DNA of 55,761 nt from Candidatus Limenecus sp. (GTDB taxonomy: Bacteria; Cyanobacteriota; Vampirovibrionia; Gastranaerophilales; Gastranaerophilaceae), in NCBI GenBank assembly GCA_045531805.1, contig JAZSES010000224.1, positions 1 through 55,761 of the forward strand, given 5' to 3'. The translations under genes were made by a program, and so were the position numbers. Under the pieces are notes generated by a model that was not told where the DNA came from, did no database searches, and was given only the letters and a program-made list of their open reading frames with translations. Shown here in pieces: positions 6,036 through 54,671 of the stretch. Every line of letters begins with the position of its first letter. Position 1 is the first letter of the stretch.

Positions 6036-6800
6036 TTACTTCTCCTTATAGAATTTTTCCATTAGTTTGTCGTGTAGTTTACTATATTGTATTTTATATT
6101 GTCTACCATTAACTTCAGTTTTATATTGTCCTGCAAACAAATCATTTGACAACTGTATATAATTCCAAGTGTCCCATTTAACTTTATGATTTTGAAAGTA
6201 TATAATATATTGTGGTTTAAAGTCTACTATCTTTTGCAAACAATTGTAGCAAGGTTCTAACATAGAATAAATTGCTCTTATCTTCTGTATACCTAGCGAC
6301 TCAATATAATTCAATACAACTTCTTCAGCATGCATATATTCACCATCAATAAGTTGATTATAACTATATAGCTTACTTGGATTATCGGTGCTTAAATCAT
6401 CATAGTATAATGTTACACAACAAGCAGTTTTAATATCTTCATCTTGACTGTATTTTGCTATCTTTACTAGCTGAGCTGGTAATAAGTCTTCCGCTATATC
6501 ATACATAATACCAAAGCCCATATCTAATTGGTTAACAAATACAACAGGAAAGCCGGCCTTATTAGCAGCCATCGCTAATTGCTTTCTGTGCGTTTTCCAC
6601 GATGGTTGACGTTTAAAGTCTTGTAATGTTAATAATACAATTCTTTGAGTAAACTCGTACTCGTCTTCGTATTCGTGAATATGGCCTATTAGCGTTCCTT
6701 CGCTTAATATATCTTGTCCACGCAGTCTTATCTTGTCATTAGGTTTACCCCAGTCACCATTCATGTATTGTTCAAATATTCTCTCTGCATTACTTGACAT
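6036..6800 (-). CDS. CDA-fold zinc deaminase (dCMP-deaminase-like) with long N-terminal extension
   Basis: 254 aa. HAE...PCxxC zinc signature in the C-terminal third (YMHAEEVVLNYI ... MLEPCYNCLQKI). The ATG at 6800 follows GAGGTG. Confidence 0.6.
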   Translation of the reverse strand: MSSNAERIFEQYMNGDWGKPNDKIRLRGQDILSEGTLIGHIHEYEDEYEFTQRIVLLTLQDFKRQPSWKTHRKQLAMAANKAGFPVVFVNQLDMGFGIMYDIAEDLLPAQLVKIAKYSQDEDIKTACCVTLYYDDLSTDNPSKLYSYNQLIDGEYMHAEEVVLNYIESLGIQKIRAIYSMLEPCYNCLQKIVDFKPQYIIYFQNHKVKWDTWNYIQLSNDLFAGQYKTEVNGRQYKIQYSKLHDKLMEKFYKEK

Positions 6801-7584
6801 TAAAATCACCTCGCTTGTGTTCTTTTCTCCAATTTAATAATCGTCTATATAAGTTTAATGGTAGTTGTCCTTGTGAATTTATTATCTGGTCAATCTCTCT
6901 ATCTGAGAACGTATATGACAATACTTTTTTAATTTCTTCAGTAGTTTCATTAAAATCCATTTCAGCGATACCTTGGTCTTCTTCACCATATATTTCGTTT
7001 AGTGTATGTGTAGTACCATCAATTTCAAATTGTTCGTCAAGTGAACTAACTTTATCAGTATTATCAATTATTAGTTTATTTCTATTATTTCTAATATCCA
7101 TCAATACTTCGTTGTATGCACTTCTTTCAATATAACCTAAATTACCTACATACACTCCATCTTTTCCAAATGCTTTTACAATTGCATAATGTACATGTGA
7201 TAACATTTCATCATACGGTTTGTCGAATGTCTTACTTAACTTATGTGCTGTCTTCTTTATCCATTGTTCTTTAGTATCTAACCAGTTCTCAATTGGCGGG
7301 TTATGAAATTGTACTAATGATTTGTTTTGATTATGTTTTAGGTTTACTAACCATTGTATATACGCTAGCTTCAAGTCATTCTTAGTAACAATATAACCTT
7401 TACAATACTTTTCAGGTATCAAATAAACATTCATTTTAATTTCTGTGCCATCTAATTTCATAAAGTATCCAATTACTACTTCACCGTTAGTAATAATTTT
7501 ATACTCTTCTTCAGTCCATGTAGTTGGATTATCGTCTGTATCTATTATTAAGTTTACGATACGATATTTCTTACCATCTCTCAT
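6790..7584 (-). CDS. hypothetical protein; weak sigma-region-2-like segment
   Basis: 264 aa, AGGAG RBS. The segment DEMLSHVHYAIVKAFGKDGVYVGNLGYIERSAYNEVLMDIRNNR loosely resembles sigma region 2. Low confidence for that function. Confidence 0.6.
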   Translation of the reverse strand: MRDGKKYRIVNLIIDTDDNPTTWTEEEYKIITNGEVVIGYFMKLDGTEIKMNVYLIPEKYCKGYIVTKNDLKLAYIQWLVNLKHNQNKSLVQFHNPPIENWLDTKEQWIKKTAHKLSKTFDKPYDEMLSHVHYAIVKAFGKDGVYVGNLGYIERSAYNEVLMDIRNNRNKLIIDNTDKVSSLDEQFEIDGTTHTLNEIYGEEDQGIAEMDFNETTEEIKKVLSYTFSDREIDQIINSQGQLPLNLYRRLLNWRKEHKRGDFNVK

Positions 7585-13686: not shown

Positions 13687-14139
13687 ATGACAAAAGCTGA
13701 ACGTGAATTATGCGAGTATAAAAGTACATTTACTGATAAGCGCTATGCTGAAAAAGCATTTAAAGCAATAATCAATGCTTCATTGCAGTCCGACGCAGGT
13801 CCGTTACCTACAATGTATGATAAACAAGGTAATGAACTTCCACAGAGTACTTTAGATAGACAAGCATATGAAAATGTTAAAAGAAGATTGTTAGCTCAAG
13901 GTATTGACCGTGAGCCGCAACAAGCTGAAATGATGATAGAGAATGCTATATTGCGTGCCCGTTTTGATAACTCAACGTTTAATACTATGTTAGAGAGAAC
14001 GATGGGTAAAGTTAAAGACGAATTAGTTGTGTCAGCCAATGAGTATGAGACTATGACTGATGAAGAACTTGACTTGTTAGCAGCACACCGTGAGAAACAG
14101 AAGTTACTAGCTAATAATGAGCCGAACGAAGGAGAATAA
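13687..14139 (+). CDS. terS: putative terminase small subunit
   Basis: 150 aa. Called by position directly upstream of, and adjacent to, the large terminase. First gene of the late arm. No motif recognised. Confidence 0.5.
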   Translation: MTKAERELCEYKSTFTDKRYAEKAFKAIINASLQSDAGPLPTMYDKQGNELPQSTLDRQAYENVKRRLLAQGIDREPQQAEMMIENAILRARFDNSTFNTMLERTMGKVKDELVVSANEYETMTDEELDLLAAHREKQKLLANNEPNEGE

Positions 14140-14140
14140 G

Positions 14141-15937
14141 ATGATAACATTAAAAGAATTACAAGATGAATTTGGTTATCCTATATTGTCCAGCAGCGAG
14201 GTTAATGCGATACGAAACCACACAATCAATTGGGAAGGTTTAGACGGTGAGATAGCTCGACGTAAGATACTTAAAAGTTATCCTGCTTATCTACAAGCCT
14301 CAAACTTTGGTTATCAAATGACAGCATATCATTACAGTTTAGCTGCGAATTTGCAGAGAAACTATGAGAAAGGACCAAATCCTGGAATGCCGTATGGATT
14401 GATATTGTTATCAGCGCCACCGCAAACAGGAAAATCGCACAGTGTTACTGAGAGCTTCCAAAGTTGGGTACTGGCTAAGAACCCTAGATTGAGCGTATTG
14501 ACACTAGGTTATGAGTCTACGTTTGCTAGTAGATTTGGTCGACGTAACAGAGAGAAGTTTAGTGAATGGGCACCAAGATTAAGCCATAATAAAATAAAGT
14601 TGCACGATAAGATACAGAGTACTGAGACATGGGAAACTATGACAATGGACCCTGTAAACGGTGTATGGGTTTCTGCCAATGGTGGTATGAGTACTGCCGG
14701 TATGGGTGGTCCAGTAACTGGTAAAACTGGTAACGTAATCGTTGTAGACGACCCGATTAAGAACATGCAGGACGCTGATAGTGAAACTAAAATTGTTACA
14801 AATATTGAGTATTTCCAATCTGTTATTGAAACACGTCTTTTAGGTAACCCAGGTTCTCTTTGTATTGTTATGTGTACAAGATGGGTTGTAAATGACTTAA
14901 TTGGATGGTTGCGTAGAAACAGAAAGAAATATATTGTTGGTGACTATAACTATGCGGCTAAGTGTACAGAAGCAAATAAAATGTCTGACCCACTAAAAAG
15001 AGAGGTTGGTGAAGGTATTTGTCCGGAGATGGGTAAAGACGCAAACTGGGCAAACGTTATTGAAGAGTCGTACACAGCATCACAAGGTGGTCACGTATTT
15101 AATGCATTGTTCCAAGGTAATCCAACAAATGAATTAGGAAACTTATTCAGAATGGACGACTGGCAAGAGTACGAGATTGATAAAATATGGAACCGACCTG
15201 AAGAACTTGACAGAATATATTTGTCAATTGACGCTACGTTTAAGGACAAAGATACCAGTGACTTCGTTGCTATGAAGGTTGGTGGTATAAAGCAAGGTAA
15301 TGACTACTTGCGTTATCTTGTTAGAAAACGACTGGATTTACCAGACACGTTAGACAAGATTATTAAGATATATAAAATGTTTCCAATCATAGACGTGATC
15401 TATATAGAAGATAAAGCCAATGGTCCAGGTATTGTGTCAATTATTAGAAAATGGAGACACAAACTTGGTATACCAGAAAAAGACTTTCCTTCTGTATATG
15501 CAATAGAACCAGAAGGTGGTAAGTATACCAGAGCGCAAACAGCGAGTGCTTATCAACGTAATGGTCGTTGCTATATACCGTGTGAAAAAGACGCGCATAG
15601 ATTAAGTTCACCTGATGACTTTGAGTGGGAAGAGAAAGACCTAAGCTATACACATTGCTTTAAACAAGAGTTAGGTACATTCCCATTTGCAGCAAACGAT
15701 GACTTAGTTGACGCGCACTCTCAACAGATTATAAGATGCATGAAGTTGTTGGACGGCGAAGAGAAGGCTGATAAGAGGCCACAGCGCTTCACCAGATATT
15801 CAAACTGGTGGCCAGAGATGTGGGCCGATTATAGAGCATTGAAAGACCCGAAAGACAAAGATGCTTTTGTTAGAATGCACGGAGCGCCTATTGAGTGGAA
15901 ACCTAAAGACGAGGGTGGAACTTATGGAATCGTGTAA
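14141..15937 (+). CDS. terL: terminase large subunit
   Basis: 598 aa from the ATG at 14141, which follows GAAGGAG. Walker A is SAPPQTGKSH and Walker B-like is NVIVVDDPIK. The C-terminal nuclease-type region carries acidic residues (IYIEDKANG, NDDLVDA). Confidence 0.85.
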   Translation: MITLKELQDEFGYPILSSSEVNAIRNHTINWEGLDGEIARRKILKSYPAYLQASNFGYQMTAYHYSLAANLQRNYEKGPNPGMPYGLILLSAPPQTGKSHSVTESFQSWVLAKNPRLSVLTLGYESTFASRFGRRNREKFSEWAPRLSHNKIKLHDKIQSTETWETMTMDPVNGVWVSANGGMSTAGMGGPVTGKTGNVIVVDDPIKNMQDADSETKIVTNIEYFQSVIETRLLGNPGSLCIVMCTRWVVNDLIGWLRRNRKKYIVGDYNYAAKCTEANKMSDPLKREVGEGICPEMGKDANWANVIEESYTASQGGHVFNALFQGNPTNELGNLFRMDDWQEYEIDKIWNRPEELDRIYLSIDATFKDKDTSDFVAMKVGGIKQGNDYLRYLVRKRLDLPDTLDKIIKIYKMFPIIDVIYIEDKANGPGIVSIIRKWRHKLGIPEKDFPSVYAIEPEGGKYTRAQTASAYQRNGRCYIPCEKDAHRLSSPDDFEWEEKDLSYTHCFKQELGTFPFAANDDLVDAHSQQIIRCMKLLDGEEKADKRPQRFTRYSNWWPEMWADYRALKDPKDKDAFVRMHGAPIEWKPKDEGGTYGIV

Positions 15938-16298
15938 TTGTAATAATTGTAAAAAGAAAAATAACCAGAAACATAAGAAGAGTCTTTGGCAAAAAACTAA
16001 AGATTTCTTCAAAGCTATTCTGGTGAAGCTAAATGACTGGACGAACGTAATAATCTACCTATTTGTACTAATAGTGTTCTTCCTACCGTGTATCTTGGCC
16101 TTTATATGGCCAAGTAAAACACTAGTTGCTATTGCTGTTGCGTATTTTGCATTTTGGGCTGGACCGATAACTCCCGCAATGCCAATACAATTCGCAATAA
16201 CATTTGGAATACGTGCCTTATTGAACAAGTTGTTTCCAAGATTGAAAACAAGACGACCTATATTTAAGAAAAACAAGGAGGAATTAAAGAATGAGTAA
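15924..16298 (+). CDS. small integral membrane protein between terminase and portal
   Basis: 124 aa from the ATG at 15924, which follows GAGGGTGGA. Basic Cys-rich N-terminus (MESCNCNNCKKK) followed by 2-3 hydrophobic helices (VIIYLFVLIVFFLPCILAFIW, LVAIAVAYFAFWAGPI). Confidence 0.55.
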   Translation: MESCNCNNCKKKNNQKHKKSLWQKTKDFFKAILVKLNDWTNVIIYLFVLIVFFLPCILAFIWPSKTLVAIAVAYFAFWAGPITPAMPIQFAITFGIRALLNKLFPRLKTRRPIFKKNKEELKNE

Positions 16299-18450
16299 AG
16301 CTATAAATACTCCAGAGTCTGAAGCATTACCTCGTCCAAATATAAAGGACAGTAGAGTACTTACTTATTTGAATGCCGATAAGTCAAATAATTATGTTAA
16401 TACCGAAGAAGAGAATATGCTTGTAAACTTATGGAGACAAAAATTTCTTATAGCTGTAGCAGAATACGAAAAGTCACGTAGTAACCCTCAAAAAGTAAAG
16501 TTATGGCGTGATGCGTATGAAGGTATTATTTATAAGACTGACGAAAATGGTAATACTACGTCTGAGACTGTAAAACCATTAAGAAGATTAGCATATGAAC
16601 TAATTGAAGACAAAGTCAATCCAAGAATACCTGCTCCTAAAATGAGTCCAAGATATCATGCTGATTTAGTTCCAGTAAATGCAACTGAGCATTTAATTAA
16701 GCATGAGATGGACAAGATGCTTTCTGAAGAAACTCATAATGAGTCAGAACATTCGACTTTAATCGACTCTATGAGCTGGTTTAAAGTGAGCTGGAACCCA
16801 TTTGATAATACCCACGAACGTAGTGGAATGCCGATGGTTGAAGTATGTCCGATAGATACTGTATTTCCACAACCTGGTATTTACGACTATAAACGTTTAG
16901 AGTATATATTTGAAAGAAGCACAATAACCCAAGCACAGTGTAAAGATTTGTTTGGTAGAACAGTATTATCACCCGATAACAACGACTTAGTTGAGATAAT
17001 TACTGCTTATTATTTAAACGAAGATAGACATTTAGGAAGATTTATTTGGGTTGAAGCTACTGGCCAAGTTCTAGCTAACGAGTTAGAATGGGCTATGAGA
17101 AAACGTAGAGAATGCGCAAAGTGTAATAAAGTTGTACCGATAGCAGCTGAATGTCCAGTTTGCGGTTCAAAGAAAATGCATTATGTTTCAGTTAAAGAAG
17201 AAAGACTGACTGAAGATATGGTTATGGTAACTAATCCATACAGAGCTGGCGCTACGATGGACACAAAACAAGATGTTAATCAGTTAGACGAAGCTCAAAC
17301 TATTCCAGCTGGAACAGTTATTCCACATTATTTGATTAGACAGTTACCATTTGTACCAAGACGAAATACAAAATTAGCAAGAAGTTTATACGGTATTTCA
17401 GAAGTTGAGTTGATGCTAGAAAATCAAGAAGAAACAAACAGGTTCTTGAATAAAGCTAGTAGAAAATCAGCAGCTAGTAAGACATATATTACTAAAATGA
17501 GAGATACTGCTATAACTAATGAAAACGATGAGCTAAGTTATATTGACGTAGATGACCCTAAAGAAGTTTCAGCAATTCAGCCTAAACAAGTTATGTCTGA
17601 TATTAACGAAGAAATGGCTATGGCTGCTACGCTTTATGATTATGCTAAATCAACAAGTGGTATTACAAATACTGACCAAGGTAAAGCAGATGCTACCGCT
17701 AGATCAGGTAAAGCTAAACAAATTCAGTTAGCTGCTAGTGAACAAAGAAAACAAGCGCCAAGTACTATGAGAGATGCAGCATATGCTGGACTATATGAAT
17801 TGATATTCAAGTTTATGTTAGCATTTAGTGATGAAGAACGTTCATTTGTTAATATTCTACCAGATGGAACACAGAGAGAAGAGATTTGGTCTAAGTACAT
17901 GTTCTTGAATAGAGACGAAGACGGTAATTTCTATTATAGAGATGATTTCGCGTGGTCTGTTGACACAGCTAGTGATATCACACAAGATAGAATGGCTATG
18001 TGGCAATTGATTGACCAAGACTATTTGAATGGTACTATGGGTAATGAAATAGACCCAGTAAGAGCTATGAAGATGTATTGGCAAATGAAAGACCAATTTG
18101 GTTATCCAACTGCTAAATTTGCATTAGCGTTTATCAATGATAGTGTTAAACACTTACCAACTCAAATTGAACAAGTATTGGTTAATAATCCTGAAGCATT
18201 ACAACTTGCATTGTCATTTATACAAGATACTCAGAAGGCTGCTGTGGGCGGCGGAAGCGGAACAGCAGTTCCAGGTATGAGTGCTGGAGGAGCTAGACCA
18301 AATAGTGGTCCAGAAGGTAATGGTGCTACACATGCTGCAAATGTTCAAAAAACTAATAATAAGAATAGAGCAAATGCTGGTAATGCACAAACTTCTACGG
18401 CGTCTGCTAAAACAGGACCAATACAAGGTGGTACAGGAGGTGTGGTATAA
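16291..18450 (+). CDS. portal protein (with inserted CxxC...CxxC zinc-ribbon and Gly/Ala/Asn-rich C-terminal tail)
   Basis: 719 aa. Called from size and position right after the terminase. AAGGAGG RBS. Cysteines C275/C278/C288/C291. TAATG-coupled to the next gene. Confidence 0.7.
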   Translation: MSKAINTPESEALPRPNIKDSRVLTYLNADKSNNYVNTEEENMLVNLWRQKFLIAVAEYEKSRSNPQKVKLWRDAYEGIIYKTDENGNTTSETVKPLRRLAYELIEDKVNPRIPAPKMSPRYHADLVPVNATEHLIKHEMDKMLSEETHNESEHSTLIDSMSWFKVSWNPFDNTHERSGMPMVEVCPIDTVFPQPGIYDYKRLEYIFERSTITQAQCKDLFGRTVLSPDNNDLVEIITAYYLNEDRHLGRFIWVEATGQVLANELEWAMRKRRECAKCNKVVPIAAECPVCGSKKMHYVSVKEERLTEDMVMVTNPYRAGATMDTKQDVNQLDEAQTIPAGTVIPHYLIRQLPFVPRRNTKLARSLYGISEVELMLENQEETNRFLNKASRKSAASKTYITKMRDTAITNENDELSYIDVDDPKEVSAIQPKQVMSDINEEMAMAATLYDYAKSTSGITNTDQGKADATARSGKAKQIQLAASEQRKQAPSTMRDAAYAGLYELIFKFMLAFSDEERSFVNILPDGTQREEIWSKYMFLNRDEDGNFYYRDDFAWSVDTASDITQDRMAMWQLIDQDYLNGTMGNEIDPVRAMKMYWQMKDQFGYPTAKFALAFINDSVKHLPTQIEQVLVNNPEALQLALSFIQDTQKAAVGGGSGTAVPGMSAGGARPNSGPEGNGATHAANVQKTNNKNRANAGNAQTSTASAKTGPIQGGTGGVV

Positions 18451-19320: not shown

Positions 19321-22300
19321 ATGAATATATTTCAAAAAGCAATTACGCCAGATATGCCTAGAGTGCTAGAAGGCGAACAAATATATGTATATGTGCCTCA
19401 AGCAACTAGTACTAATGCTGGCATAGCCAGCTATACAAATAGCGACTTTAAAGTTAACGATGGTGTGGTATCATTAAGATGGCCAGTCGAGTCATTTGCG
19501 CAAGGACCTATTGAAACTCCAAGTATTGTAAAAGTACTCGATAATGAATTCGAGTATACTGGAAATCTAGTCGAACTAGTGAGCGATAATAGTAGATTAG
19601 CTTCAAATAAACTTGAAGTGCGATTAAAACGAGATTTGCGTGATGCGTATGAACAACCTGAACTAGTGTTATTAGACCCAAATTATTTTGCTAGAACGAT
19701 TGTTGAAAAAGACGGTAAAAGATATTATAAATATAATACTACAGCAATTCATTATAATATACCACAACATTTGAATAGCGAACAACAGGCTTTGGCTAGA
19801 GAGAATATAAGCGCGAGTAGTTTATCAGACCTAGCTTTTGTAAATTCGCGAATTGATAATTTATTACAAACCGGTGTATATACTGTAAACGGTAAAAGCG
19901 GTGATGTAATATTGAAGACTAGCGACATCGAAAATGATAGTGATTATGCTAGTAAAGATTTTGTAAACAGCTCCATAGCAACAAGTACTTCTACATTTAG
20001 AGGCACCTATGATAGTTTAGAAGCCCTGTTAGCGTATGACGGTGAGAAAGACGATAATGACTATGCTTTTGTAAACGAAGTAGATGATACTGGAAATTCA
20101 AGTTATAATCGATATAAATATGATGGACAAAATTGGGTATATGAATATAAACTAAATAATTCAAGTTTCACAGATGCGCAATGGTCTTCTATAAATAGTG
20201 GAGCTACAGAAGCATTAATAGCTCAAATACTAATTAATCAAACTGAGTTCAGTAATTACTTGCCTTTAACTGCTGGCAGCAAAAAGCATTTAACTGGTAC
20301 ACTATATGCAGACGGAGGTGTCGTAATACCAAACAATGTACCTTATAAGTCTGTTACAAGTGATAATAAAGAAATAACATTATTCAGATTGGCTGCATCG
20401 AATGCAATTATGATTGGCGACAGTTCTGGTAATTACGATATGGCTACATACTCGCTATTTAGACCAGTAACTGGTGCTACGAAAGCTGCATTAGGCTCGC
20501 CACAATATAAATGGAATTCGATACACGGCATCGAAATATATCAAAACGGCGAACAAGTTGCTAATAAAAGTGATTTAGACGATTATCTACCATTGACAGC
20601 TGGTTCTGAGAAACCATTGACAGGTCCGTTGCATCTTAAATCAAGTGCAGATTCTGTATGGTCGACAGATGCTGGTATCGTGTTTGACTCCGGTGCTACA
20701 ATAGGTTCATTAGATAGTGGTACATTAGGTCTTAAAGCGAAAGGTAGTTTCTATATAAGAATAGGCGATACAACCGAAATTAACGTTGATGCTAGTTCAC
20801 TTAGACCTTCTAGTAAAGGTGGCTCGTCTTTAGGTACTTCATCATATCAATGGCTAAATCTATATGCAACTAATCTATATCAAGACGGTAAGCCAGTAGC
20901 AAATCAAGAATACGTAGATCAGAAAGTTGCTGATTTGGTCGGTTCAGCACCAGAGACGTTGAACACGTTGGTTGAAATAGCAGCTGCGCTAAAAGACAAT
21001 GCTGATATTGTTACTGTATTAGAAGAAGCAATAGCTAGTAAAGCACCTATTTCTAGTGTTCCAACTGAATATATCAAAACAGCTGCGCTATCTGCTGATT
21101 TGAAAAAGTTAATATTAACTAAAGCTGATAATAGTACTGTTGAATTTAAAGGTGGAGACGTATATAAAGGTACTTGTGAAACCGGTAGTACTAGTACTAC
21201 AAAAGTAGTAACTTGTCCAGGATTTGTACTTGAAAAAGGCGCAATTATAGATATAACGTTCAAATATAGTAATGGCGGCGTAGTATCATTAAATGTCAAT
21301 AACACTGGTGCAAAAACAGCACAATATTATGAAATAGGTCTAACTTCAGATTACAATACGATCACTAGAGCTGGTGGAGCAGACAAATCTATCCCTTATG
21401 GTGGTTGGAGCGCGGGAGATACTGTAAGATTCTTTTACGATGGATCCGATTGGATTGAAATAATGAATTTAACACAAGGTATATCATATTCGATACCTTA
21501 TCAAGCAACAAATGCTTACAAATCGAGAACACAAGCTACTACTGATAATAGCACTAATATTGCTACAACAGCTTTCGTACATACTGCAATAGAAGCAGCA
21601 TTAGAAGCTGGTGCTGGTAATGAAGGTGTATATTTACCATTATCTGGTGGACAGATGACTGGTCAGTTATTGTTAGACTCATCAGGTCTGTTATTTCCAA
21701 ACATGTATAGATTAAGTGGTAATGGTATTGACCCAGTTAGTGAAACAGGCGTTTTCAAAATATACGAAGCAGACGGTATTGGAAGTACTTTAAGTTATAA
21801 TTATGGAACAGGTATATCTGAACATACTGGTGCGATTACATTTACGAGCAATGCTACATATTCAACAACGTCTCAACCAACTGCATTATCGTACGGTAGA
21901 TTACAAGCATACGGGACGTTAAATATTAATGCTAATACAGATAATTCTGGAACCGAATATGTTAATATAACAGCAGGACATGGATGTTCGTCATCTACTG
22001 CTGATGGTTTGAGTATAGGAACAGATACACTAACGTGGAAGGACCAACCTGTTATTCATAGTGGTAATATTAATAGTTATATGTTACCGGCATATAAACA
22101 AGATAGTATGAGCGGTAAATGTCTAAGATTGTGCCAATTGACATCGTCAGTAGGAAGTGGTTTTGCATATGCGGTATTTTTAGTATCGGGTATTGGTGAT
22201 TATGGTGGTAAGTTCGCTGGCTCATATCTAGTTACAATGGGTACTAGAGGAAGTGCTGAAAATAGTATGAAAATTACAGCATTGCAGACAGGCAGTAATA

Positions 22301-22542
22301 TAAGTGATACAAAATTTGGATATGCGACTGACCCAGATAATAGTAATTTAACATCTTATTATTGGATAGGCGATGATTATAATTTTTGGCCATCGAGAGT
22401 TATTTGTTTAGCATCTGGTGGTAATACTACCGTTAACGCAACACCTACTATTGTAACAAAGCCGTCTTCGTATACTGCGGTAGGTATAAACGGAGATATG
22501 GAATGTAACAATTTAAAAATAAACGGTACACTAACAATATAA
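19321..22542 (+). CDS. tail-fibre-like protein
   Basis: 1073 aa. Three copies of the fibre-type motif: YLPLTAGSKKHLTGTLY, YLPLTAGSEKPLTGPLH and YLPLSGGQMTGQLLL. Also LVGSAPETLNTLVEIAAALKDNADIV, which is typical of phage fibre shafts. Confidence 0.7.
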   Translation: MNIFQKAITPDMPRVLEGEQIYVYVPQATSTNAGIASYTNSDFKVNDGVVSLRWPVESFAQGPIETPSIVKVLDNEFEYTGNLVELVSDNSRLASNKLEVRLKRDLRDAYEQPELVLLDPNYFARTIVEKDGKRYYKYNTTAIHYNIPQHLNSEQQALARENISASSLSDLAFVNSRIDNLLQTGVYTVNGKSGDVILKTSDIENDSDYASKDFVNSSIATSTSTFRGTYDSLEALLAYDGEKDDNDYAFVNEVDDTGNSSYNRYKYDGQNWVYEYKLNNSSFTDAQWSSINSGATEALIAQILINQTEFSNYLPLTAGSKKHLTGTLYADGGVVIPNNVPYKSVTSDNKEITLFRLAASNAIMIGDSSGNYDMATYSLFRPVTGATKAALGSPQYKWNSIHGIEIYQNGEQVANKSDLDDYLPLTAGSEKPLTGPLHLKSSADSVWSTDAGIVFDSGATIGSLDSGTLGLKAKGSFYIRIGDTTEINVDASSLRPSSKGGSSLGTSSYQWLNLYATNLYQDGKPVANQEYVDQKVADLVGSAPETLNTLVEIAAALKDNADIVTVLEEAIASKAPISSVPTEYIKTAALSADLKKLILTKADNSTVEFKGGDVYKGTCETGSTSTTKVVTCPGFVLEKGAIIDITFKYSNGGVVSLNVNNTGAKTAQYYEIGLTSDYNTITRAGGADKSIPYGGWSAGDTVRFFYDGSDWIEIMNLTQGISYSIPYQATNAYKSRTQATTDNSTNIATTAFVHTAIEAALEAGAGNEGVYLPLSGGQMTGQLLLDSSGLLFPNMYRLSGNGIDPVSETGVFKIYEADGIGSTLSYNYGTGISEHTGAITFTSNATYSTTSQPTALSYGRLQAYGTLNINANTDNSGTEYVNITAGHGCSSSTADGLSIGTDTLTWKDQPVIHSGNINSYMLPAYKQDSMSGKCLRLCQLTSSVGSGFAYAVFLVSGIGDYGGKFAGSYLVTMGTRGSAENSMKITALQTGSNISDTKFGYATDPDNSNLTSYYWIGDDYNFWPSRVICLASGGNTTVNATPTIVTKPSSYTAVGINGDMECNNLKINGTLTI

Positions 22543-22553
22543 AGGAGGTCAAA

Positions 22554-23132
22554 ATGAGAGAAAACAATGTGAACGTGCAAGTGTATTCTTCTTGCAATTG
22601 TAGTTGTAATTTTTGTAATTTTACAGATAAATGCTACAATAAAATTGATCCGGACTTTGTATTAAACTATGTAAACGAACATCCGAATATTAACTTAATA
22701 TTACTAACAGGCGGGGAGCCTACGTTCGCTATCAACGAGTATGCTAAAATTGTGCAAAGCTTAGATATTACTGAAAAGAAAGTAGTTCTTCAAACAAATG
22801 GATGGTGGGGTGAAGCTGATGATATCAAGCAAGTTATCAAAGATAATCCACCAACTTGTGTGCATTTAAGCGTAGACTCAGAAAAGCAAAAAATTGTTCC
22901 ATTAGAAACAGCTATAAAAGCATATGACTTTTTAGTCAAAAATAATATTCAGGTATTTGTAGTAAATCATCACGAAGAAACAAATGAAGCTGAATTTGAA
23001 TATTATAAGAGCTTATTTCCTAATATAAAATACGGTCGAATAGTAAAAGATGAGGGCCAAGAAACTGATTGTGGTGTTGCACTTTTAGCAACAAATACTG
23101 TTGGTAGACTAGACATAAAAGGATGGAGGTGA
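22554..23132 (+). CDS. small radical-SAM enzyme
   Basis: 192 aa. CX3CX2C at residues 14-21 (CNCSCNFC) and the SAM-binding block LLTGGEPT. AGGAGG RBS. Confidence 0.75.
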   Translation: MRENNVNVQVYSSCNCSCNFCNFTDKCYNKIDPDFVLNYVNEHPNINLILLTGGEPTFAINEYAKIVQSLDITEKKVVLQTNGWWGEADDIKQVIKDNPPTCVHLSVDSEKQKIVPLETAIKAYDFLVKNNIQVFVVNHHEETNEAEFEYYKSLFPNIKYGRIVKDEGQETDCGVALLATNTVGRLDIKGWR

Positions 23133-23136
23133 TAGT

Positions 23137-24309
23137 ATGGCAAACGCAGGAGTAAGAGGCGGTGGCGGTGCAGGTGGTGGTGAGTCATCATCCGATAGTT
23201 TCACCGGAAGTTCATCGGGCGGTGCTGGAGTAGTTTATTATTTCAGAAGTAGCGTAAAACCGATCTCATACAACAATAAAATACGAATGAATGTTAATGG
23301 TACATTGTATATTCCCTGTTTTTTCGAAGGTCCAAATTCATATGGTAACTATAGCTATTATAGCAGAATTTATCTGAGCAGACCAAATGGAATAGTCACA
23401 CCAAATCACCAAACAAATCGTACATACAATCTAGGCTCAAATGCAAAAATATATCAAGCGAATAGCGGAACGTCTGGAACGTATACAGAGATTACAGATA
23501 TGACAGGATATCAAGGAGTATTAAGTCATGCGAGCAAAATCGCTGATAAAAACGGTACTAAATTGAATTTGTTATATTTTTCAGATAATACACCTTCTAC
23601 AAAATACGTTACTTCTAGTTGGGATTACGGCGAAATAACAAGTAGCACGACTAAAAGTTTACAATATTCGTGTGGAGTAAATGGTTATAATTACTGGTAT
23701 TTTGTACTACAAGCTGGCGGAGGTGGCGGAGGAGGTGCTGATAACTCGTGGGGGTTATTTAACTATGCTGCCGGAGGCGGTGGCGGTGGTGGCGGTGGAG
23801 CCGCAGGATTTATGGTAAGAGTGCCTTCTGGTGCGAGTTGGAATGCTGTGATAACTGTCGGAGGAGGTGGCGACGGTGGTTCTAGCGGTAATGGTTCTCG
23901 TCCAGCTGGTAGTGCCGGAGGAGATACTCGCGTACAAATAAAAAATGCTAGCGGTACAGTCGTCGTAGATTTTACTGTCGGAGGAGGCAAAGGCGGTGGA
24001 GGTGCTAACGGAGACTCTGCTGGAGGCGGTGGCGCTGGAGGACAATGTACTGCTTCTAGCAGTTTAAGTGATCCCGACTATCTATTTTGTTTTATAGTAG
24101 ACGGAGGCGCTGGAGGAAGCGTTGGTCAAGGCGGCGGTGTAACACATTCATCTTTTTGGAATAGTCATACGACACCTGCCATAAATCCGCATACTTTCAA
24201 TCCTCATAAAGTTGCGCAAATAGATAACGCCGGAGGCTATACTGGGTCTCAAAACGACCGCGGCGGTGGTGGAGGTTTATCTTATATGGGCAGCGGAGGA
24301 TATTATTAA
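23137..24309 (+). CDS. glycine-rich (poly-Gly tract) putative fibre/receptor-binding protein
   Basis: 390 aa. Contains runs of 7 and 9 consecutive Gly plus several GGGG blocks separated by short beta-like segments (FMVRVPSGASWNAVITVGGGG, TVVVDFTVGGGKGGGG). Its RBS GGAGGTG lies inside the 3' end of the radical-SAM gene. Confidence 0.65.
   Translation: MANAGVRGGGGAGGGESSSDSFTGSSSGGAGVVYYFRSSVKPISYNNKIRMNVNGTLYIPCFFEGPNSYGNYSYYSRIYLSRPNGIVTPNHQTNRTYNLGSNAKIYQANSGTSGTYTEITDMTGYQGVLSHASKIADKNGTKLNLLYFSDNTPSTKYVTSSWDYGEITSSTTKSLQYSCGVNGYNYWYFVLQAGGGGGGGADNSWGLFNYAAGGGGGGGGGAAGFMVRVPSGASWNAVITVGGGGDGGSSGNGSRPAGSAGGDTRVQIKNASGTVVVDFTVGGGKGGGGANGDSAGGGGAGGQCTASSSLSDPDYLFCFIVDGGAGGSVGQGGGVTHSSFWNSHTTPAINPHTFNPHKVAQIDNAGGYTGSQNDRGGGGGLSYMGSGGYY
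24024..24024. other. placeholder removed
   Basis: No feature here. This entry has zero confidence and should be ignored. Confidence 0.
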
Positions 24310-24411: not shown

Positions 24412-24479
24412 ATGGATAGCGAAAATTTATACCCGGGACTAAATTGGAACTATCGGTAAAATATGGAGGGAAAGCAAAT

Positions 24480-24989
24480 ATGCCTGAATTTGCAAGTAAA
24501 GGAGTCGCAGGAAGCGGCTTAGGTCTAGGTATAGCTGGCACAGCACTTGGACTATTAAATAACGGCGCCGGCGGAGTATTAGGTTTGCTAGGCAACAATT
24601 GTGGATACAACTATGGAAATAGAGCAGTATCAACTTTTGAACTAACACAAGCTGAGAAAATCTCTGCACTAGAGAGCGCGGTAGCACTTAGAGATGCTAA
24701 TGTTTACGGTGACCAAAAACTATTAGAACTTTATAGATATGTTGATGGAGAGCTAAAAGACATTAGAAGAGAAATGTGTGACAACAAATTATCACAAGCG
24801 GTAATAAACGCTAAGTTCGAAAGCGGTATCGACGTATTAGGTACCCAAATCGCGTCAATAAACAATACACTTTGTAAGTTGACAAGAGTGGTAATACCAA
24901 ATTCTAGTATATGTCCGGGATGGGGTGATGTTACTGTAACTGTTACACCAACTACCACTCCAACAACCACACCAACGACAAACGGCTAA
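24480..24989 (+). CDS. hypothetical protein: Gly-rich hydrophobic N-terminus, coiled-coil, Thr-Pro repeat tail
   Basis: 169 aa from the ATG at 24480, which follows GGAGGG. N-terminus GVAGSGLGLGIAGTALGLLNNGAGGVLGLLG. C-terminus VTPTTTPTTTPTTNG. Confidence 0.6.
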   Translation: MPEFASKGVAGSGLGLGIAGTALGLLNNGAGGVLGLLGNNCGYNYGNRAVSTFELTQAEKISALESAVALRDANVYGDQKLLELYRYVDGELKDIRREMCDNKLSQAVINAKFESGIDVLGTQIASINNTLCKLTRVVIPNSSICPGWGDVTVTVTPTTTPTTTPTTNG

Positions 24990-25023
24990 CCTATCCACTA
25001 TAAAATTTAAAAAATAATGGAAA

Positions 25024-25061
25024 GTGGCTAGGATATAATGTCCTAGCCACTTTTATCTTTT
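25024..25061 (+). terminator. rho-independent terminator
   Basis: GTGGCTAGGA-TATAATG-TCCTAGCCAC forms a 10-bp perfect stem, followed by TTTTATCTTTT. Confidence 0.8.
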
Positions 25062-35855: not shown

Positions 35856-38800
35856 ATGTTAGAAATTAAAAACACAAAAATTACTAACTACGAAGATGAG
35901 CAAAAGGCCAGAGGTACTGGCCAGCTCAAATCTCGTAGAGAATTGAATACAAAGAACTTTTATGACAAAATGTACAATAATTTTAAAACAAATAATCAAT
36001 TGTACTTAGACGACGATATGTGGGTAACCGCAGCTACTCGTGGTGAATTAGATAACTTAATATATTTGTTAAATGAGAACAAAGTTGAAAATGAAGGTTT
36101 AGAAGCATTAAAGAGTTGGGGTATGGGAGTTGATTATGACACATACATGTTAGCGCTAAGTATTCCAACGCTTAATAATGAAGAAAAGAAAACTAGATTA
36201 AATGAAGCAGGCGATTATAGTTTTGGCGACTTAACAGACCAAGAATGGGCTAAGATGGTGCTTGACGCTACGAATAATAAATATCAAGCTGAATATATCG
36301 AAGCCAATAAAGAGAACTTAAAATGGTGGCAGACTGCTGGTGCAGGGATTGTTTCATTTGTTGGACACATTGCGACTGGTATTGTTGGAGCAGCTCAGAA
36401 TGCATACAATCTTGGCGAAGGAATTTATAATGCTGTAACAGGCGGTGAATTCTTAAAAGCTTGGGCTGACGATGACGACGAGTATCTAGCAAATGTATAT
36501 GAACAAATGAAATATGCAATGTGGGAACTTGACAGAGTTACAATGCCTTGGGTAGATGCAGTTGAAGCATATGAACAAGGTTATACCACGATGGCTACCG
36601 ATATAGACTTAGGCTCTAAAGCATTTACAGAAAGTATAAGACAAACTGGATATGGTGGTGGTTTAAATACTTGGGGTCGTTGGTGGCAAAGTGGTTTACA
36701 ATCATTTGGTGAAATGCTACCATTTATGATTATGCCAAATATTAAGATTGTTGGGCATTCGAAAGCAAGCTCAGTTTTAACTAAAATTACAAAAACCGGT
36801 GGCTTTTATACAACTAACGTGTTTTCAGCAAATATTGGTGATACAGTAAAAACCGCTCAATTAAACGGTATATCTTATAAAGACTTAAATGCTGGCGAAG
36901 TAATAGGAAATGCTGCATTAAAAACAGTTGGTCAATATATTGTTGAAGTGCTTTTAGGTAAAGTATTAGGTTTCACTGGACTTGATGCAATGATGGGCGT
37001 AGGCGATGATGTTGTGGGTGTAGCTAAGTGGTTTACTAAAGCAGCGGGTGCTACAGGTGGTAAAGCCGCAGGCGTAGCATTAGGTCGAGGCGCATTATCA
37101 ATGGTCAAGGAAGGTCTTGAAGAAGTATTACAAGACATGTCAGACAATATGATCGATATGTTCTTTGGTGGTGATTATGCTGAAAGAGCTAGAGAGAATT
37201 TGACTTGGCAAAATATCGGAGATGCATTTGTTGTCGGTGCATTAACTTCTGGTGTTATTGGAACTTTAAGTTCTGCATCGGTTGTTATAAATAGAAACGC
37301 ACGCGGAATTGCTGTTGACGAAAAAACTGGAAAAGCGTATAGGATGGGCTTATTCCAACAGTTGAATTATAATCAAGCTATGCAAGCTATGGCAAGTTGG
37401 CAAGAAACTCTTAATGATAAAAACGCTTCTGCACAAGATAAAGCTGACGCAGCATTTAGACTAAACGGGGTAGTATCTACACTTGGTAATGTGCTTAAAA
37501 CATTCGGTACAGAACGTTCACAAAAAGCATTAGAGCTGTTGACTATTTATCAAAATAAAATGTCAACCAAAGAAGAGAAAGCAACTGCTAAAGCACAATT
37601 AAGTGATACTGAATTTGCTAAATCATTATTTACTGATTATGTTGAAGCAAACAAACGCAGTATTGAAAAATTTGTTACTCAAAAAGCTCAAGACAAACTA
37701 AAGAAAGCTTTAGAAAAAGAAGCTAAACTTCTTAAGAAGAATGGTGTAACTAAGATTACAGATATTGTTACTCAAGAGTTAAGTACAGACGACCCAGAAG
37801 TAGATATTCCAGAACAATCAGCTAAAGCAGTTAAGCAATTACTAAAACAGACTAAGAGTGATATGGTTGTAGCTACAGATGGTAAAATGGTTGTTAAGTC
37901 AGATGATGTAATATTTGCACCAGAGTCTTTGGTTAAAGAAGGAAAAATAAGTGAGATACTTGAAGGTATTGCATACGATAAAGCTATTAAAGCGATTGCT
38001 CCAGAATTAAGTAAAAAGCAAAACGACCTTATTTTAGAAGAGTTTAAGAAACTATCAGGTAGACAAGATGCTACAATCGAAGATGCTTTAGTTGCTTTAT
38101 TATTTGACAAATCATTCTATACTTATATATTGTTAAAAACAAATGAGACTCAATCTATAAACGATGCTAATGACGCAATTAAGATACTAGCTATTATGGA
38201 CAATATCGTTAAAGGTAAAATCGCAGGCGATGTCGATAAAGGAACATTAACTCAGGCGGCTTATCAAAAGCTCGTAGAGCGAATTCAAGAGAATATGCGA
38301 GCTGGTTTAGTAGTATACGCAATCAATTATACTAACATTGACTTAGATGCGGTTAGTGGTGAAATACTTCCAGCAAGTTATAAAGAACTAATTCGTACTA
38401 ATAAAAATGTTATATTTACTAAAGCTGTTAACGACTGTATGGAAAGTAAACAACGTGGCGTTATAACACAAAATCGTATAGCTGAATTTGATAGACAGAT
38501 TGATAAGTTTATTGGACTAAATGCAGCCTTCGACGAAATGATAGCTGAAGCAAAACAAAAGATTAGAAGTACTGAATATAACGATAGATTTGATGCAGTT
38601 GGACTATTACGTTATTTAGCAAATATTGACGAGCAAACTCAACTAATATTCTTAAAACCAGATAAAGCAAATAGCACCACTGATAATACTGAAAAGAATA
38701 TTGTATTAGTTACAGAATTCTTTGACGTTGAATGGAACAAATTACTAAACGGTGAATTTGAATTTATAGATTTATCACAAGACGCTCAAACTTATGTTAA

Positions 38801-41800
38801 AGATGCCGGATATGATATTACAAACTATAATGATAGAATAGCTATGCTTAGAGAACGTTTATATCATTATTCTAATAATACTTTGACAATTGCAAATAAC
38901 GGAGAAGTATTACAGATACTTGATAAAAACAAATTAGTTAAAAAAGAATATTTAGGTAAAGACGGAGAAGCTAAATTATTAGCCGATATAAAATCTGGCA
39001 AAGTTAAGAAAGTAAAAGACGTTTGTAAAATAACTATAAATAAAACTATAGGCAACTTGAATATAATTCTAGATGAGACACTTGATTTTAACGGTTACTT
39101 TGACGATAATAGTCCTAAACAGATAACTATTAGTAAAAATAATATTGTTAATACAATTATGCACGAGTCTACTCACGCCACTCAGTTCTATACTCGCTCT
39201 ACACAATCAGCAACATTTACTTCTGGTGGTAGTGTTACTGTATTAGAAAAGATACCTGGTTCTATTTTAGACGAACTCGATGAGTATCTTGCTGATAATT
39301 TTCCGTTAATGTATAAAGCAATGTTGATGGATACCAAAAACGATATTCCTGAGATAATCTATTTTAGCATTGAAGGTGAAATGCAAGCAATGTGTAAGTT
39401 AACTTCACTGTTGTTTGAGACTGGTTTTACTTGGAGCAATAATAGACAAACCCTTCATAGTCCAGACGGTAAGAAGTCTTGGAACTTAAAAATTAAAACC
39501 GATAAAATTACTATCTCTACTGAAAGTGAAGTTGACACAACTGTTGACGAGCAAAAATCAGAAGATAGACCATTAAAACGAGCTGAAGTTGCAAATCTCA
39601 AAAACGATGAACAAATACAAGCGTTTATGAAAGATGGCTATCTTAAGAACGAAGACGGAAGTCCTAAAGTGTTTTATAGGTTTAGTGTTGGCGACAAGGG
39701 ACAATTATATGGTAATATCGGAGCTTTACAAGATAGATATGGTGGTACTAGTCGTAAAAGTGATGCTGTTTATTTAGCTGGCGACCCTTTGATGGAATTT
39801 AGTGAAATACCTGGGATAGATACTTTGCGTGGATATGTCAGCAACCTTAAACAGGATGATTTGTTAATAATTGATAATAAAAGCAGGCCTTGGAATAAAA
39901 TTATTTTAAACAAATATAATGTTAAAAATCATACTGAAATACTTAACGTTTTTATAAACAATAGAGCTATTGATACTATCGCATTGACAGATAATATTAG
40001 TGCATATCAAAAAGACTCTAAATTATCAGAAGCATTATCGAAACTAAAAGACATCAAAGGTATTTACATTACAAATATAAAAGAAGGCGGGTCAGGCGAA
40101 CAATTAACCGATAATTTAATTATCTTCGATAGGTCATCTTTAAAAAGAATAACTACAGAAGATAACTATAAATTTGTAAAAGATTATACGCAAGATACAA
40201 TAATGTCTGATAGATATGAAGACCGTCATGATGCTGAATATATTAAAGAGTATATTGAGAATTATGAGCAAGACGTCGATCAAGTCTCTGAGTCTAGAAA
40301 AGTAAGTAATAAGATAGCGGAACAATCAAACTTAAAATACTTTATCAAGAAAGGTCAACAAATACAACTAGATGAACGTGTTCAAGAATTCATAAAAGAC
40401 ACAACGGCTAACTTTGATAAATTGGAACCGGTTATTCAAAAAGCAATTAAGAATGGTTCATTGACTTTGCTAGATATACAAAATTATGTGGAGACTGCAA
40501 ACTCAATGAACGATTATACTTTCCAGATGATTGCAAAGTATATTTACGAGAATGACGAAGTTGCTAAATTAACTTATAAAGAAATGATTGAAATATTAGA
40601 ACACTTAGAAGAAATAGATACGCTTAAGCTATATTTAAGTGTTTGGAACGAAGACCTGCAAAGATATGAGTCAGAACAAATTGACAAAAAAATGTCGTAT
40701 ACTGAAATGATTAAAGACTATAATGAATTACAAGAACTAGCTAAAACAGATAAAAAAGTTGCCGATGCTTTAGTAGGCTATACTAAATTAGCCAGTACGA
40801 TTAAACCAGATGGTAGTAGACAATTTATACCATACAACGTCGACATAGACCAAATGCATGGCGCATTCTTTAGACATTATAATGGTACGATTAGATCGTT
40901 GTCAAACTTAAATAGATATGGTAAAAATATTGCTCATAATCAAGAAGTATTGTCATTAAGTAGTAACGAAGGTGAAGGCGCTAATTTAAAATCTAGAAAA
41001 AGCAGTGCTTGGAACTGGATAGACAGAATGCGTAAAGCAGATATCAATTATAGTAATCCGGAACAATTAAATGAGATACTAAGTGACTTAGACCGACAAG
41101 ATAAAATCAATATTATACAAGAACATATTATTCAGTCTATTATTGAACAAAGTAAAGCCAATAATTGGTCACAAGAAGAAGTACTTGAGCAATTCAACAA
41201 TCAACGAGACAGATTAGATACACTAACCGATGATGAGATTAACAAGTTATATATGGCTGCTACTTCAGAAGGTGTTGTAGAAACTAATCTTGATTACATG
41301 AATATTAGAAACGAATTAGAAAAGCGTTATATTCGTAAAAATCAAAACAAATATAAAGGTAGGTATGCGTCTAGAATTACTGCTAGAGCGACTGCTAAAC
41401 AAGCAGGACGTAAGATTGCTACAAGATTAGCCGGTTTGAAAACTAGGTTTAATAAATTGTCGCCGGAAGTTCAAGCATTATTTGATAGAAAAGCTGACGG
41501 ACATTATGAACTTAATGATAAGTATCAAAAAATGTCTGACGCTGAGCTTGAAGCAATTATTCCAGAAATGCAAGAAGCTAGTAAGATGTTAGCTGATAGA
41601 ATTAGAATTGTTGAAGCTGCTAAAAAGTCTAAATTAAATGCTATCAAACGTGCTAATCGCCAAGCTGAAAAAATGCTTGATAGACCGGCAGGTGAAGGCA
41701 AAAAGACTATGCGTGAAAAAGTTGATGTTGTACATAAAGTAGTAATGAAACAAGAAACTTTTAATGTTGTAAGTAGAGAACAAGCACCGTCTATTGTAGA

Positions 41801-53968: not shown

Positions 53969-54286
53969 TTATTCTTGCGAATTTAATTTCATATAATATT
54001 GTTGAATAAGTGCTAAGAACGCACCGCCTGCTTTATCGCCAAGATCTGGTTGTTTATCCATCTCAATAGCCATTTTAGCAAGACCATCTGCAAGTTGTGG
54101 TATAGAACCATTAACGTCATACATATAACCTTCGTTTAAATCAATACCTTCTTCTTCAGCTTTAAGTGTTTCTAGCACACTAATCTTAAGAATTTCGCTA
54201 GTTCTATTAACTGGCTCCATATTCTTAAGTTCTTCAATCGTTGTCTCATTTGACATATTTAATTGTGCATCTACATTATTTTCCAT
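53969..54286 (-). CDS. hypothetical acidic protein (105 aa)
   Basis: The ATG at 54286 follows AGGAGC. The longer track start would overlap dut by 50 nt. Confidence 0.55.
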   Translation of the reverse strand: MENNVDAQLNMSNETTIEELKNMEPVNRTSEILKISVLETLKAEEEGIDLNEGYMYDVNGSIPQLADGLAKMAIEMDKQPDLGDKAGGAFLALIQQYYMKLNSQE

Positions 54287-54671
54287 TATTTGTTGCTCCT
54301 GAACTATTATTCCAATTTGTACCACGTTTACCTGGCTTAGCTACTTCGTATTTAACTCTATCTTTGCCTAAAGTTAAATTAACAATACTAAATGCCCTTT
54401 CACCTGGCATGAATACTTGTTTTCTATCTGTTGTATTAACAACAAATGCATGTATAATACCTTCATATCCAGTATCAATTGCTACAGGAATAGGGAATAT
54501 ACCTTTCTTTGCAGTAGAACTTCTAGCTAATAAGAATGCTACTTCATTAGGACCTGGCGTATATTTACATGGTAATACAACGGTTTGATAGCCAGGGTTA
54601 ATTTCAAGTATATCATCTAATACAATATCTACTGCTGCATCGTCTGCATAACCTTTTATGAACTTATCCAT
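54276..54671 (-). CDS. dut: dUTP diphosphatase (trimeric dUTPase family)
   Basis: 131 aa. Motifs in order: DDAAVDI, LLARSSTAKKG, VAIDTGYEGII and a C-terminal KRGTNWNNSSG. Confidence 0.8.
   Translation of the reverse strand: MDKFIKGYADDAAVDIVLDDILEINPGYQTVVLPCKYTPGPNEVAFLLARSSTAKKGIFPIPVAIDTGYEGIIHAFVVNTTDRKQVFMPGERAFSIVNLTLGKDRVKYEVAKPGKRGTNWNNSSGATNNGK

Follow-up and report, generated by a model that had tools for sequence, protein, structure and literature searches.

What does a radical S-adenosylmethionine (SAM) enzyme do when its gene lies between a tail-fibre-like gene and a gene for a glycine-rich protein? This question is raised by contig JAZSES010000224.1 of Candidatus Limenecus sp. 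(assembly GCA_045531805.1), of which positions 1–55,761 were analysed (55,761 nt, hereafter the window) and found to be a phage genome. The enzyme in question, hereafter rSAM, is a 192-residue protein encoded at 22554..23132 (+). Peptide maturases of the radical SAM type are familiar from natural-product pathways, those of the ribosomally synthesised peptides that are modified after translation (RiPPs), and to our knowledge the phage radical SAM genes characterised so far are all tied to nucleotide metabolism (QueE, NrdG). A first-pass annotation of the window had suggested radical chemistry on a virion component or a cell-surface substrate and knew of no described example; our full-text literature searches likewise found no account linking a radical SAM gene to a fibre or glycine-rich protein. 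Here we describe a strictly ordered three-gene cassette whose enzyme has the peptide epimerase EpeE (YydG) as its nearest characterised relative. We tentatively propose, at rather less than an even chance, that the cassette is a swappable host-recognition unit in which a stripped-down rSAM modifies the fibre tip before assembly, leaving a D-amino acid or a different product of Cα-radical chemistry.

The radical SAM enzyme and its nearest relatives

The rSAM open reading frame (ORF) is preceded by AGGAGG. The cluster-binding loop of the protein, CNCSCNFC (residues 14–21, with C14, C16, C18 and C21; 22593..22616, +), contains the CX3CX2C triad C14/C18/C21, and the SAM-binding motif GGEP occupies residues 53–56 (22710..22721, +). 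The Pfam model Radical_SAM (PF04055) scored 40.4 bits on the 192-residue protein against a gathering cutoff of 29.5 (E=4.4e-10), so the cysteine motif is not due to chance. In a collection of 5.8 billion proteins, 30 homologues were found (51–90% identity, almost all metagenomic), which are 188–197 residues long save for one 127-residue fragment. Comparison of these homologues revealed that the cluster-binding loop with its triad, the segments SSCNCxCxFC, TGGEPT and QTNGWW, and residues D108, K111, Q112, H139 and E147 are invariant. C16 (22599-22601) is a fourth invariant cysteine in the loop (C-x-C-x-C-x2-C), outside the canonical triad, and EpeE has no cysteine there.

The sole conserved cysteine outside the loop is C173, kept in 28 of the 30 homologues, and the rSAM family is therefore without an auxiliary cluster. 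The cysteine-rich SPASM/twitch motif (Cx9-15Gx4C ... CxxCx5Cx3C) is absent from rSAM, in which only C173-x10-G184-x4-K189 is left, with no further cysteine. The near-invariant C173 is located in a C-terminal β-hairpin, DCGVALLATNTVGRLDIKGWR (23067..23132, +; strands predicted at residues 172–177 and 183–187). This terminus, D-C173-G-x9-G184-RLDI-K189-GW, appears similar to the opening hairpin of a twitch/SPASM domain with its closing cysteine changed to lysine. A MAFFT alignment with longer YydG-like proteins sets G174 under their 'GRG/GAA' motif; the spacing would suggest instead a twitch-hairpin remnant. The first-pass description of a 192-residue enzyme with C14/C18/C21, GGEP and no SPASM-like cysteines was confirmed, and with its catalytic motifs intact the protein is predicted to be an active radical SAM enzyme with a single cluster.

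To place the enzyme, we compared it with curated families and with known structures. No NCBIfam equivalog cutoff was reached, the best model being the YydG peptide epimerase TIGR04078 (41 bits against a cutoff of 300, over residues 6–97 only). A sequence-profile search of the PDB ranked EpeE (8AI1–8AI6) first (E=9e-11), and hhalign against 15 YydG-like radical SAM proteins gave a probability of 99.9% (E=6e-31) over residues 2–137 only, leaving the last 55 residues unaligned. The AlphaFold2 (AF2) model of rSAM, with a predicted local distance difference test (pLDDT) score of 90.8, consists of six β/α units that form a partial (β/α)6 triosephosphate isomerase (TIM) barrel. Foldseek analysis of this model also placed EpeE first (E=3e-9, TM 0.71), followed by BlsE, SkfB, viperin-like enzymes and anSME; among the 62 PDB matches at E<=0.001, the best 50 (E to ~5e-5) are all radical SAM enzymes. 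The nearest relatives are peptide-modifying, with EpeE/YydG first, in keeping with a protein as the target of the radical chemistry.

The family itself is sharply bounded. An exhaustive hidden Markov model (HMM) search of 1.84 billion representatives recovered it as one 50%-identity cluster, after which the next hit falls from 321 to 82 bits, and gave no intermediate relatives bridging rSAM to a characterised family. The next-nearest proteins are radical SAM enzymes of 270–350 residues, most of which have YydG as the best model, below cutoff. Scans of IMG/VR found a single true member, on the same contig from rSAM and glycine-rich queries. Isolate phages in INPHARED gave no tblastn match to rSAM, the glycine-rich protein or the fibre, and the species-representative genomes of GTDB contained no true family member, all 80 loci being generic N-terminal radical SAM matches. 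A metagenome-contig scan likewise yielded no true member among the matches listed, only generic patterns; the generic matches (loci L010–L161 and L174–L253) were left out of the family. Judged from sequence, rSAM appears to descend from the YydG-like peptide-modifying clade by truncation, keeping a single cluster and losing the T-SPASM domain, and stands outside the YydG family as defined.

The three-gene cassette and the flanking proteins

The order of fibre tail, rSAM and glycine-rich protein was found in all 12 distinct loci, and in near-duplicates, whichever of the rSAM and glycine-rich genes seeded the search. The co-occurrence of these two genes, which the first-pass annotation had named as a check, was thus kept in every locus examined. 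Across the 12 loci, the fibre and rSAM genes are 8–13 nt apart, and the spacing from rSAM to the glycine-rich gene ranges from -11 to +4 nt. The 4-nt gap in the window, described earlier, reads TAGT; the ribosome-binding site of the glycine-rich gene, GGAGG (23125..23129, +), lies within the end of the rSAM coding sequence, as also described, and is separated from the ATG by 7 nt. A fourth conserved gene downstream was considered and rejected, since the gene after the glycine-rich gene differs among loci, and the cassette thus comprises three genes.

The placement in a late, morphogenesis operon was borne out. The large terminase (14117-15937) and portal (16291-18450) genes lie just upstream of the cassette on the same strand as the fibre, rSAM and glycine-rich genes, with no terminator-like site before 25020; the first one downstream of the cassette is a hairpin with a 16-bp stem (25020..25054, +). 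Elsewhere the cassette is carried by at least four backbones, namely portal-adjacent, siphovirus-like with a tape measure, T4-baseplate-like, and small integrative islands. It lies beside the portal gene in the window and L167, after the tape-measure and distal tail region in L005, amid T4-like baseplate genes in L006–8, and in short integrated islands beside RHS, YobI-ATPase or Shedu genes on bacterial contigs (L001–4, L255–257).

The islands merit a separate description. Those at L255:4662-15581, L256:338-14731 and L001:1116-13797 span ~7–13 kb near YobI-ATPase or Shedu-like defence genes and recombinases, and their gene content is tail-like only (an RHS/YD-shell protein, 439-residue and 221-residue proteins, and the fibre). 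The L255 island is embedded in a 343-kb contig of a bacterial metagenome-assembled genome, with housekeeping genes on both sides. Such islands may be satellite-like or remnant elements. Prophage-like islands in the metagenome-assembled genome GCA_964320195.1 hint at where a cultured host could be sought.

The first cassette gene (19321..22542, +) encodes a 1073-residue protein that PHROG tail-fibre families match at residues 523–614, in agreement with its earlier designation as tail-fibre-like. It ends in NLKINGTLTI-COOH (22510..22539, +). A tail with the consensus [IV][NT]G[TSK]L[TVI][IV]-COOH was seen in 12 of 12 loci. It closes the upstream fibre gene in the window, L001, L005, L007, L162, L163, L165, L167, L169, L171 and L172; in L170 the tail is on a separate ORF. 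The fibre bodies are unrelated across the 12 loci, with lengths of 272–1287 residues and a Pfam content that varies between Phage_fiber_rpt, BppU_N, PTR and a Laminin_G neighbour. The conserved tail is thus a third cassette element, overlooked in the first-pass annotation, and an equally good substrate candidate.

At L170:4871-4990, the tail sits on a 39-residue ORF (MAELKDTNVQGDLNVSGDTQITGDVQLAGTVVITGTLII) directly upstream of rSAM and resembles a RiPP precursor. Searched against the isolate phages of INPHARED, this ORF gave only matches of E ~0.1 to generic fibre repeats. An assembly frameshift could account for it, as translating the DNA of this locus does not reproduce the indexed proteins exactly.

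The third gene (23137..24309, +) encodes the 390-residue glycine-rich protein, for which 16 homologues were compared. It contains 89 glycines (22.8%), including the noted runs of seven (residues 194–200) and nine (residues 213–221). The N-terminal motif MANxGxGYGGGGAGGGExSSDxFTGSSAGxxG (23137..23229, +) is conserved in the family, with G8, G10, G11, G14, G15, E16, F22, G28 and G31 invariant, and a central conserved motif reads LQAGGGGGGGADNSWGLFNYAAGGGGGGGGGA. The C-terminal motif, NDRGGGGGLSYMGSGGYY-COOH (24253..24306, +; family consensus DDRGGGGGxSWLGNGGYY), has D374, G376, G377, G379, G380, S382, G385, G388 and Y390 invariant, and its end, ...GGGGGLSYMGSGGYY-COOH, is the candidate substrate end of this protein. 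Aromatic residues W205, F208, Y210 and Y390 are invariant, and no cysteine is conserved among the 16 homologues. Hypervariable segments separate the invariant glycine blocks, and homologue P0001, whose rSAM is 90% identical to that of the window, has a glycine-rich partner on the same contig that is only ~43% identical.

A domain resembling Gly_rich_2 (PF21722) covers residues 174–382 (23656..24282, +) and holds both glycine runs (23716..23799). The PF21722 model scored 13.4 bits on the window protein against a cutoff of 24.3 (E=0.08) and matched 10 of the 16 family members at E<=1 (the lowest E being 7e-8); a literature search for PF21722/Gly_rich_2 returned no papers. The AF2 model of the protein (pLDDT 75.9) gave no significant PDB match in Foldseek (E>=0.25). 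Entries of the glycine-rich domain (GRD) of ALK/LTK recur among the insignificant matches (E 0.5–4), and weak BFVD matches were to one tail fibre and to viral proteins annotated 'glycine-rich domain'. From its position, the protein is presumed to be a fibre-tip or adhesin component of the virion.

Candidate substrates and chemistry

We infer that one of the flanking proteins is the substrate, and it is probable that rSAM modifies it by Cα-radical chemistry, through epimerisation or through cross-linking or cleavage. The enzyme would be made alongside both neighbours in the reducing host cytoplasm, before virion assembly. Its 5'-deoxyadenosyl radical would take the Cα hydrogen from a residue in a conserved terminal motif of a flanking protein, either the fibre tail [IV][NT]G[TS]L[VTI][IV]-COOH or the glycine-rich C-terminus S[WY][LM]G[NSD]GG[YS]Y. 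The most likely outcome would be L-to-D epimerisation, with C173 giving a hydrogen back as in the single-cluster proteusin epimerases, leaving a fibre tip that resists proteases or is locked in its conformation. That rSAM is a dedicated maturase making a D-residue in the fibre tail or the glycine-rich protein has, in our estimate, just short of an even chance. Epimerisation is the most economical outcome because EpeE is the nearest characterised relative, because single-cluster epimerases with one cysteine exist, and because the site in EpeX, the substrate of EpeE, resembles both motifs. EpeE epimerises the isoleucine in the C-terminal W-I-L-G-S-G-H-COOH of EpeX (PMC13012085). Both candidate motifs, like the EpeX site, are C-terminal, reading aliphatic-x-G-[ST] or aromatic-aliphatic-G-[SN]-G. 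The YydG/EpeE family turns Val or Ile of a neighbouring precursor from L to D, and isoleucine, valine or leucine occurs in the candidate motifs. C173 could serve as the hydrogen donor in place of Cys223 of EpeE, which has no positional equivalent in rSAM.

Several observations weigh against this proposal. The likeness of the motifs to EpeX is short and possibly due to chance, especially in a glycine-rich context, and offers only a lead. Hallmarks of EpeE (the auxiliary cluster, Cys223 and Asp210) are missing from rSAM, with homology confined to residues 2–137, and C173 is missing in two of the 30 homologues. The glycine-rich protein is without a significant structural match and takes its tip-adhesin role from position only. 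Mirror-tree (Mantel-type) comparison of the enzyme with either partner gave no co-variation (r<=0.23), so the substrate cannot be chosen computationally. In addition, a cross-link or a backbone cleavage is a possible alternative outcome of Cα-radical chemistry.

This last outcome, in which rSAM acts on a flanking protein without epimerising it, shares the evidence of synteny with epimerisation and is on balance unlikely. The glycine-rich protein might, for example, be locked onto the fibre tail, its glycine strands stapled, or a terminus trimmed. The top fold matches include SkfB and further maturases that form cross-links, loss of the hydrogen-donor cysteine in EpeE causes peptide breakage (PMC8326336), and the invariant W205, F208, Y210 and Y390 of the glycine-rich protein are possible cross-link partners. 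However, known cross-linking radical SAM maturases have SPASM/twitch auxiliary clusters, which the 192-residue protein lacks, and a thioether link is excluded by the lack of a conserved cysteine in the glycine-rich protein.

It is improbable that rSAM acts on a small molecule such as a nucleotide or sugar in the manner of viperin or BlsE, for example supplying a cofactor or a glycan precursor for decoration of the fibre, or serving as an unrelated moron. BlsE and viperin-like enzymes do appear among the Foldseek matches (E ~1e-8 to 1e-6), and the prokaryotic viperin model scored 22.7 bits on rSAM, but these scores fall well under the family cutoffs. Near the cassette, the loci examined share no glycosyltransferase or nucleotide-sugar gene, and for a moron, the same placement with start/stop overlap across unrelated backbones would be unexpected.

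The islands on bacterial contigs, which lie beside RHS/YD-shell, YobI ATPase and Shedu-like defence genes and have no head genes, also bring to mind a toxin-like, bacteriocin-like or surface-protein module in which the glycine-rich protein is a modified effector and not part of the virion. This is quite improbable given that in the window, L005, L006 and L167 the genes around the cassette are those of terminase, portal, baseplate and tape measure, and that a fibre-type gene always directly precedes the pair. No N-terminal signal peptide is evident in the glycine-rich protein by reading the sequence, with no predictor used, and its BFVD matches include tail-fibre proteins. Assembly chaperones are often encoded immediately downstream of fibre genes, and rSAM could be viewed as such a chaperone in the Tfa/gp38-chaperone position, using its iron–sulfur fold as a scaffold without radical chemistry. 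That is very doubtful, since all catalytic and SAM-binding motifs are strict across the 30 homologues down to 51% identity, which is unexpected for a non-catalytic scaffold.

Scarcely credible is a glycyl-radical activase acting on the poly-glycine protein, or a QueE or NrdG with host-encoded partners, for which the small size typical of NrdG and QueE, the name 'organic radical activating enzyme' given to a homologue by one source, and weak scores for TIGR03963 (QueE_Clost, 27.2 bits) and TIGR02495 (NrdG2, 23.6 bits) are set against distant cutoffs (260 and 131), much better scores of YydG-like relatives, the oxygen that would destroy such a radical on a virion protein outside the cell, and the absence of a glycyl radical enzyme from the window and of QueC, QueD, FolE, DpdA and NrdD domains from every window ORF of at least 100 residues in Pfam scans.

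The suggestion of radical chemistry on a virion or surface substrate came through the profile comparison with QueE and NrdG, which gave no confident match, and is partly supported by the conservation of the gene pair and by the peptide-modifying relatives; the absence of queC, queD, folE, dpdA and nrdD partners was reproduced as well. Two of the chemistries listed with that suggestion are unlikely: glycyl-radical formation, because the enzyme is not activase-like and no RVxG[FWY]-type motif was seen on reading the glycine-rich sequence, of which no formal pattern search was made, and methylation, because there is no B12, HemN-like or RlmN-like module.

If the proposed modification is real, it would mark the first time that a virion structural protein is modified by a radical SAM enzyme, and rSAM would be the first radical SAM enzyme of the epimerase type to act on a large folded protein and not a RiPP peptide. 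Phage receptor-binding machinery would then be chemically editable after translation, with possible effects on fibre stability against gut proteases, on host range, and on the prediction and engineering of receptor-binding proteins; recombinant fibres made without rSAM might be non-functional. At 192 residues with a single cluster, the enzyme would rank with the smallest radical SAM enzymes that modify proteins, and would be a minimal scaffold of natural origin. The strict three-gene synteny provides a directly testable system for anaerobic co-expression in E. coli.

Genome setting and comparison with known systems

The replication and nucleotide genes of the window are located on the strand opposite to the cassette. 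They include genes for serine hydroxymethyltransferase (838-2055), a dCMP-deaminase-like protein (6036-6809), dUTPase (54276-54671) and ThyX (54664-55362), all on the minus strand. Together they make up a thymidylate or one-carbon module that is self-contained and possibly a sign of modified pyrimidines. The phage also encodes a sigma-70-family protein with regions 2 and 4 (59-820, -). In the late region, a 2785-residue ORF (35856-44213, +) has no Pfam or PHROG match and may encode a giant virion or ejected protein. A 181-residue ORF (24444-24989, +) comes after the glycine-rich gene and before the 16-bp-stem terminator. It has a hydrophobic N-terminus rich in glycine, alanine and leucine and a PTTTPTTTPTT C-terminus, and is not kept in the other cassette loci; from sequence, its true start is probably the ATG at 24480 (MPEFASKG...), as in the L171 homologue (79% identical). 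The genome had been called apparently complete, which was not confirmed: a terminal repeat was sought in the window and none was found, leaving completeness unproven.

Comparison of rSAM with EpeE/YydG of Bacillus subtilis (PDB 8AI1–8AI6, TIGR04078) revealed the closest similarity to a known system. The cluster motif is at the same C14/C18/C21 at the very N-terminus of both proteins, the motifs TNG[FW]WG and S[VY]D are common to both, and EpeE acts on an aliphatic residue within a C-terminal W-I-L-G-S-G-H that is encoded beside the enzyme. The differences are equally clear. The phage enzyme has 192 residues and EpeE 319, and the T-SPASM auxiliary-cluster domain of EpeE (C206, D210, C222 and C223) is wholly missing from the phage protein, past whose end lie both the twitch signature C206-x10-G217-x4-C222-C223 and D210 (EpeE chain numbering being native numbering plus 25). 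Its neighbours differ as well: rSAM is encoded beside structural proteins of 270–1290 residues, whereas EpeE is encoded beside a 49-residue RiPP precursor. The enzyme is not a member of YydG, the SPASM/twitch maturases, QueE, NrdG or the glycyl radical enzyme activases; in its proposed working it is most like the radical SAM maturases of RiPPs, above all the epimerases.

The proteusin epimerases of the PoyD/OspD type have a radical SAM cluster only, use one strictly conserved cysteine as hydrogen donor, act independently of a leader, and show no significant sequence homology to EpeE according to a review (PMC8326336). They have a RiPP recognition element (RRE) domain and nitrile-hydratase-like precursors, and are likened to the phage rSAM by functional logic (C173) only.

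On the side of the partner proteins, gp38 of phages S16 and T2 is described, in Dunne et al. (2018) as cited in PMC12801897, as a tail-fibre tip adhesin with a polyglycine-II sandwich. Like gp38, the glycine-rich protein is encoded downstream of a fibre gene and has conserved glycine motifs split by hypervariable segments. However, hhalign of the glycine-rich protein against S16 gp38 indicated no homology (probability 0.7%), and gp38 comes straight after gp37, without an intervening enzyme gene such as rSAM in the phage cassette. The glycine-rich protein is thus analogous to gp38-type adhesins by position and not homologous to them. Viral proteins with Pfam Gly_rich_2 and the GRD of ALK/LTK are repeated weak Foldseek matches to the glycine-rich protein, which are not significant. 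We know of no radical SAM partner in the wider Gly_rich_2 family.

The closest parallel in concept is provided by 2-oxoglutarate (2OG)-Fe dioxygenase operons, which are predicted to modify T4 tail-collar-family proteins and secreted glycine-rich collagen-like proteins (Iyer et al. 2010, PMC2938197). In both cases a redox enzyme is genetically linked to fibre-like and glycine-rich structural proteins and a post-translational modification is predicted. The dioxygenases are of an unrelated fold, are found in bacterial operons and carry out oxygen-dependent hydroxylation, and the phage cassette would be their oxygen-independent counterpart.

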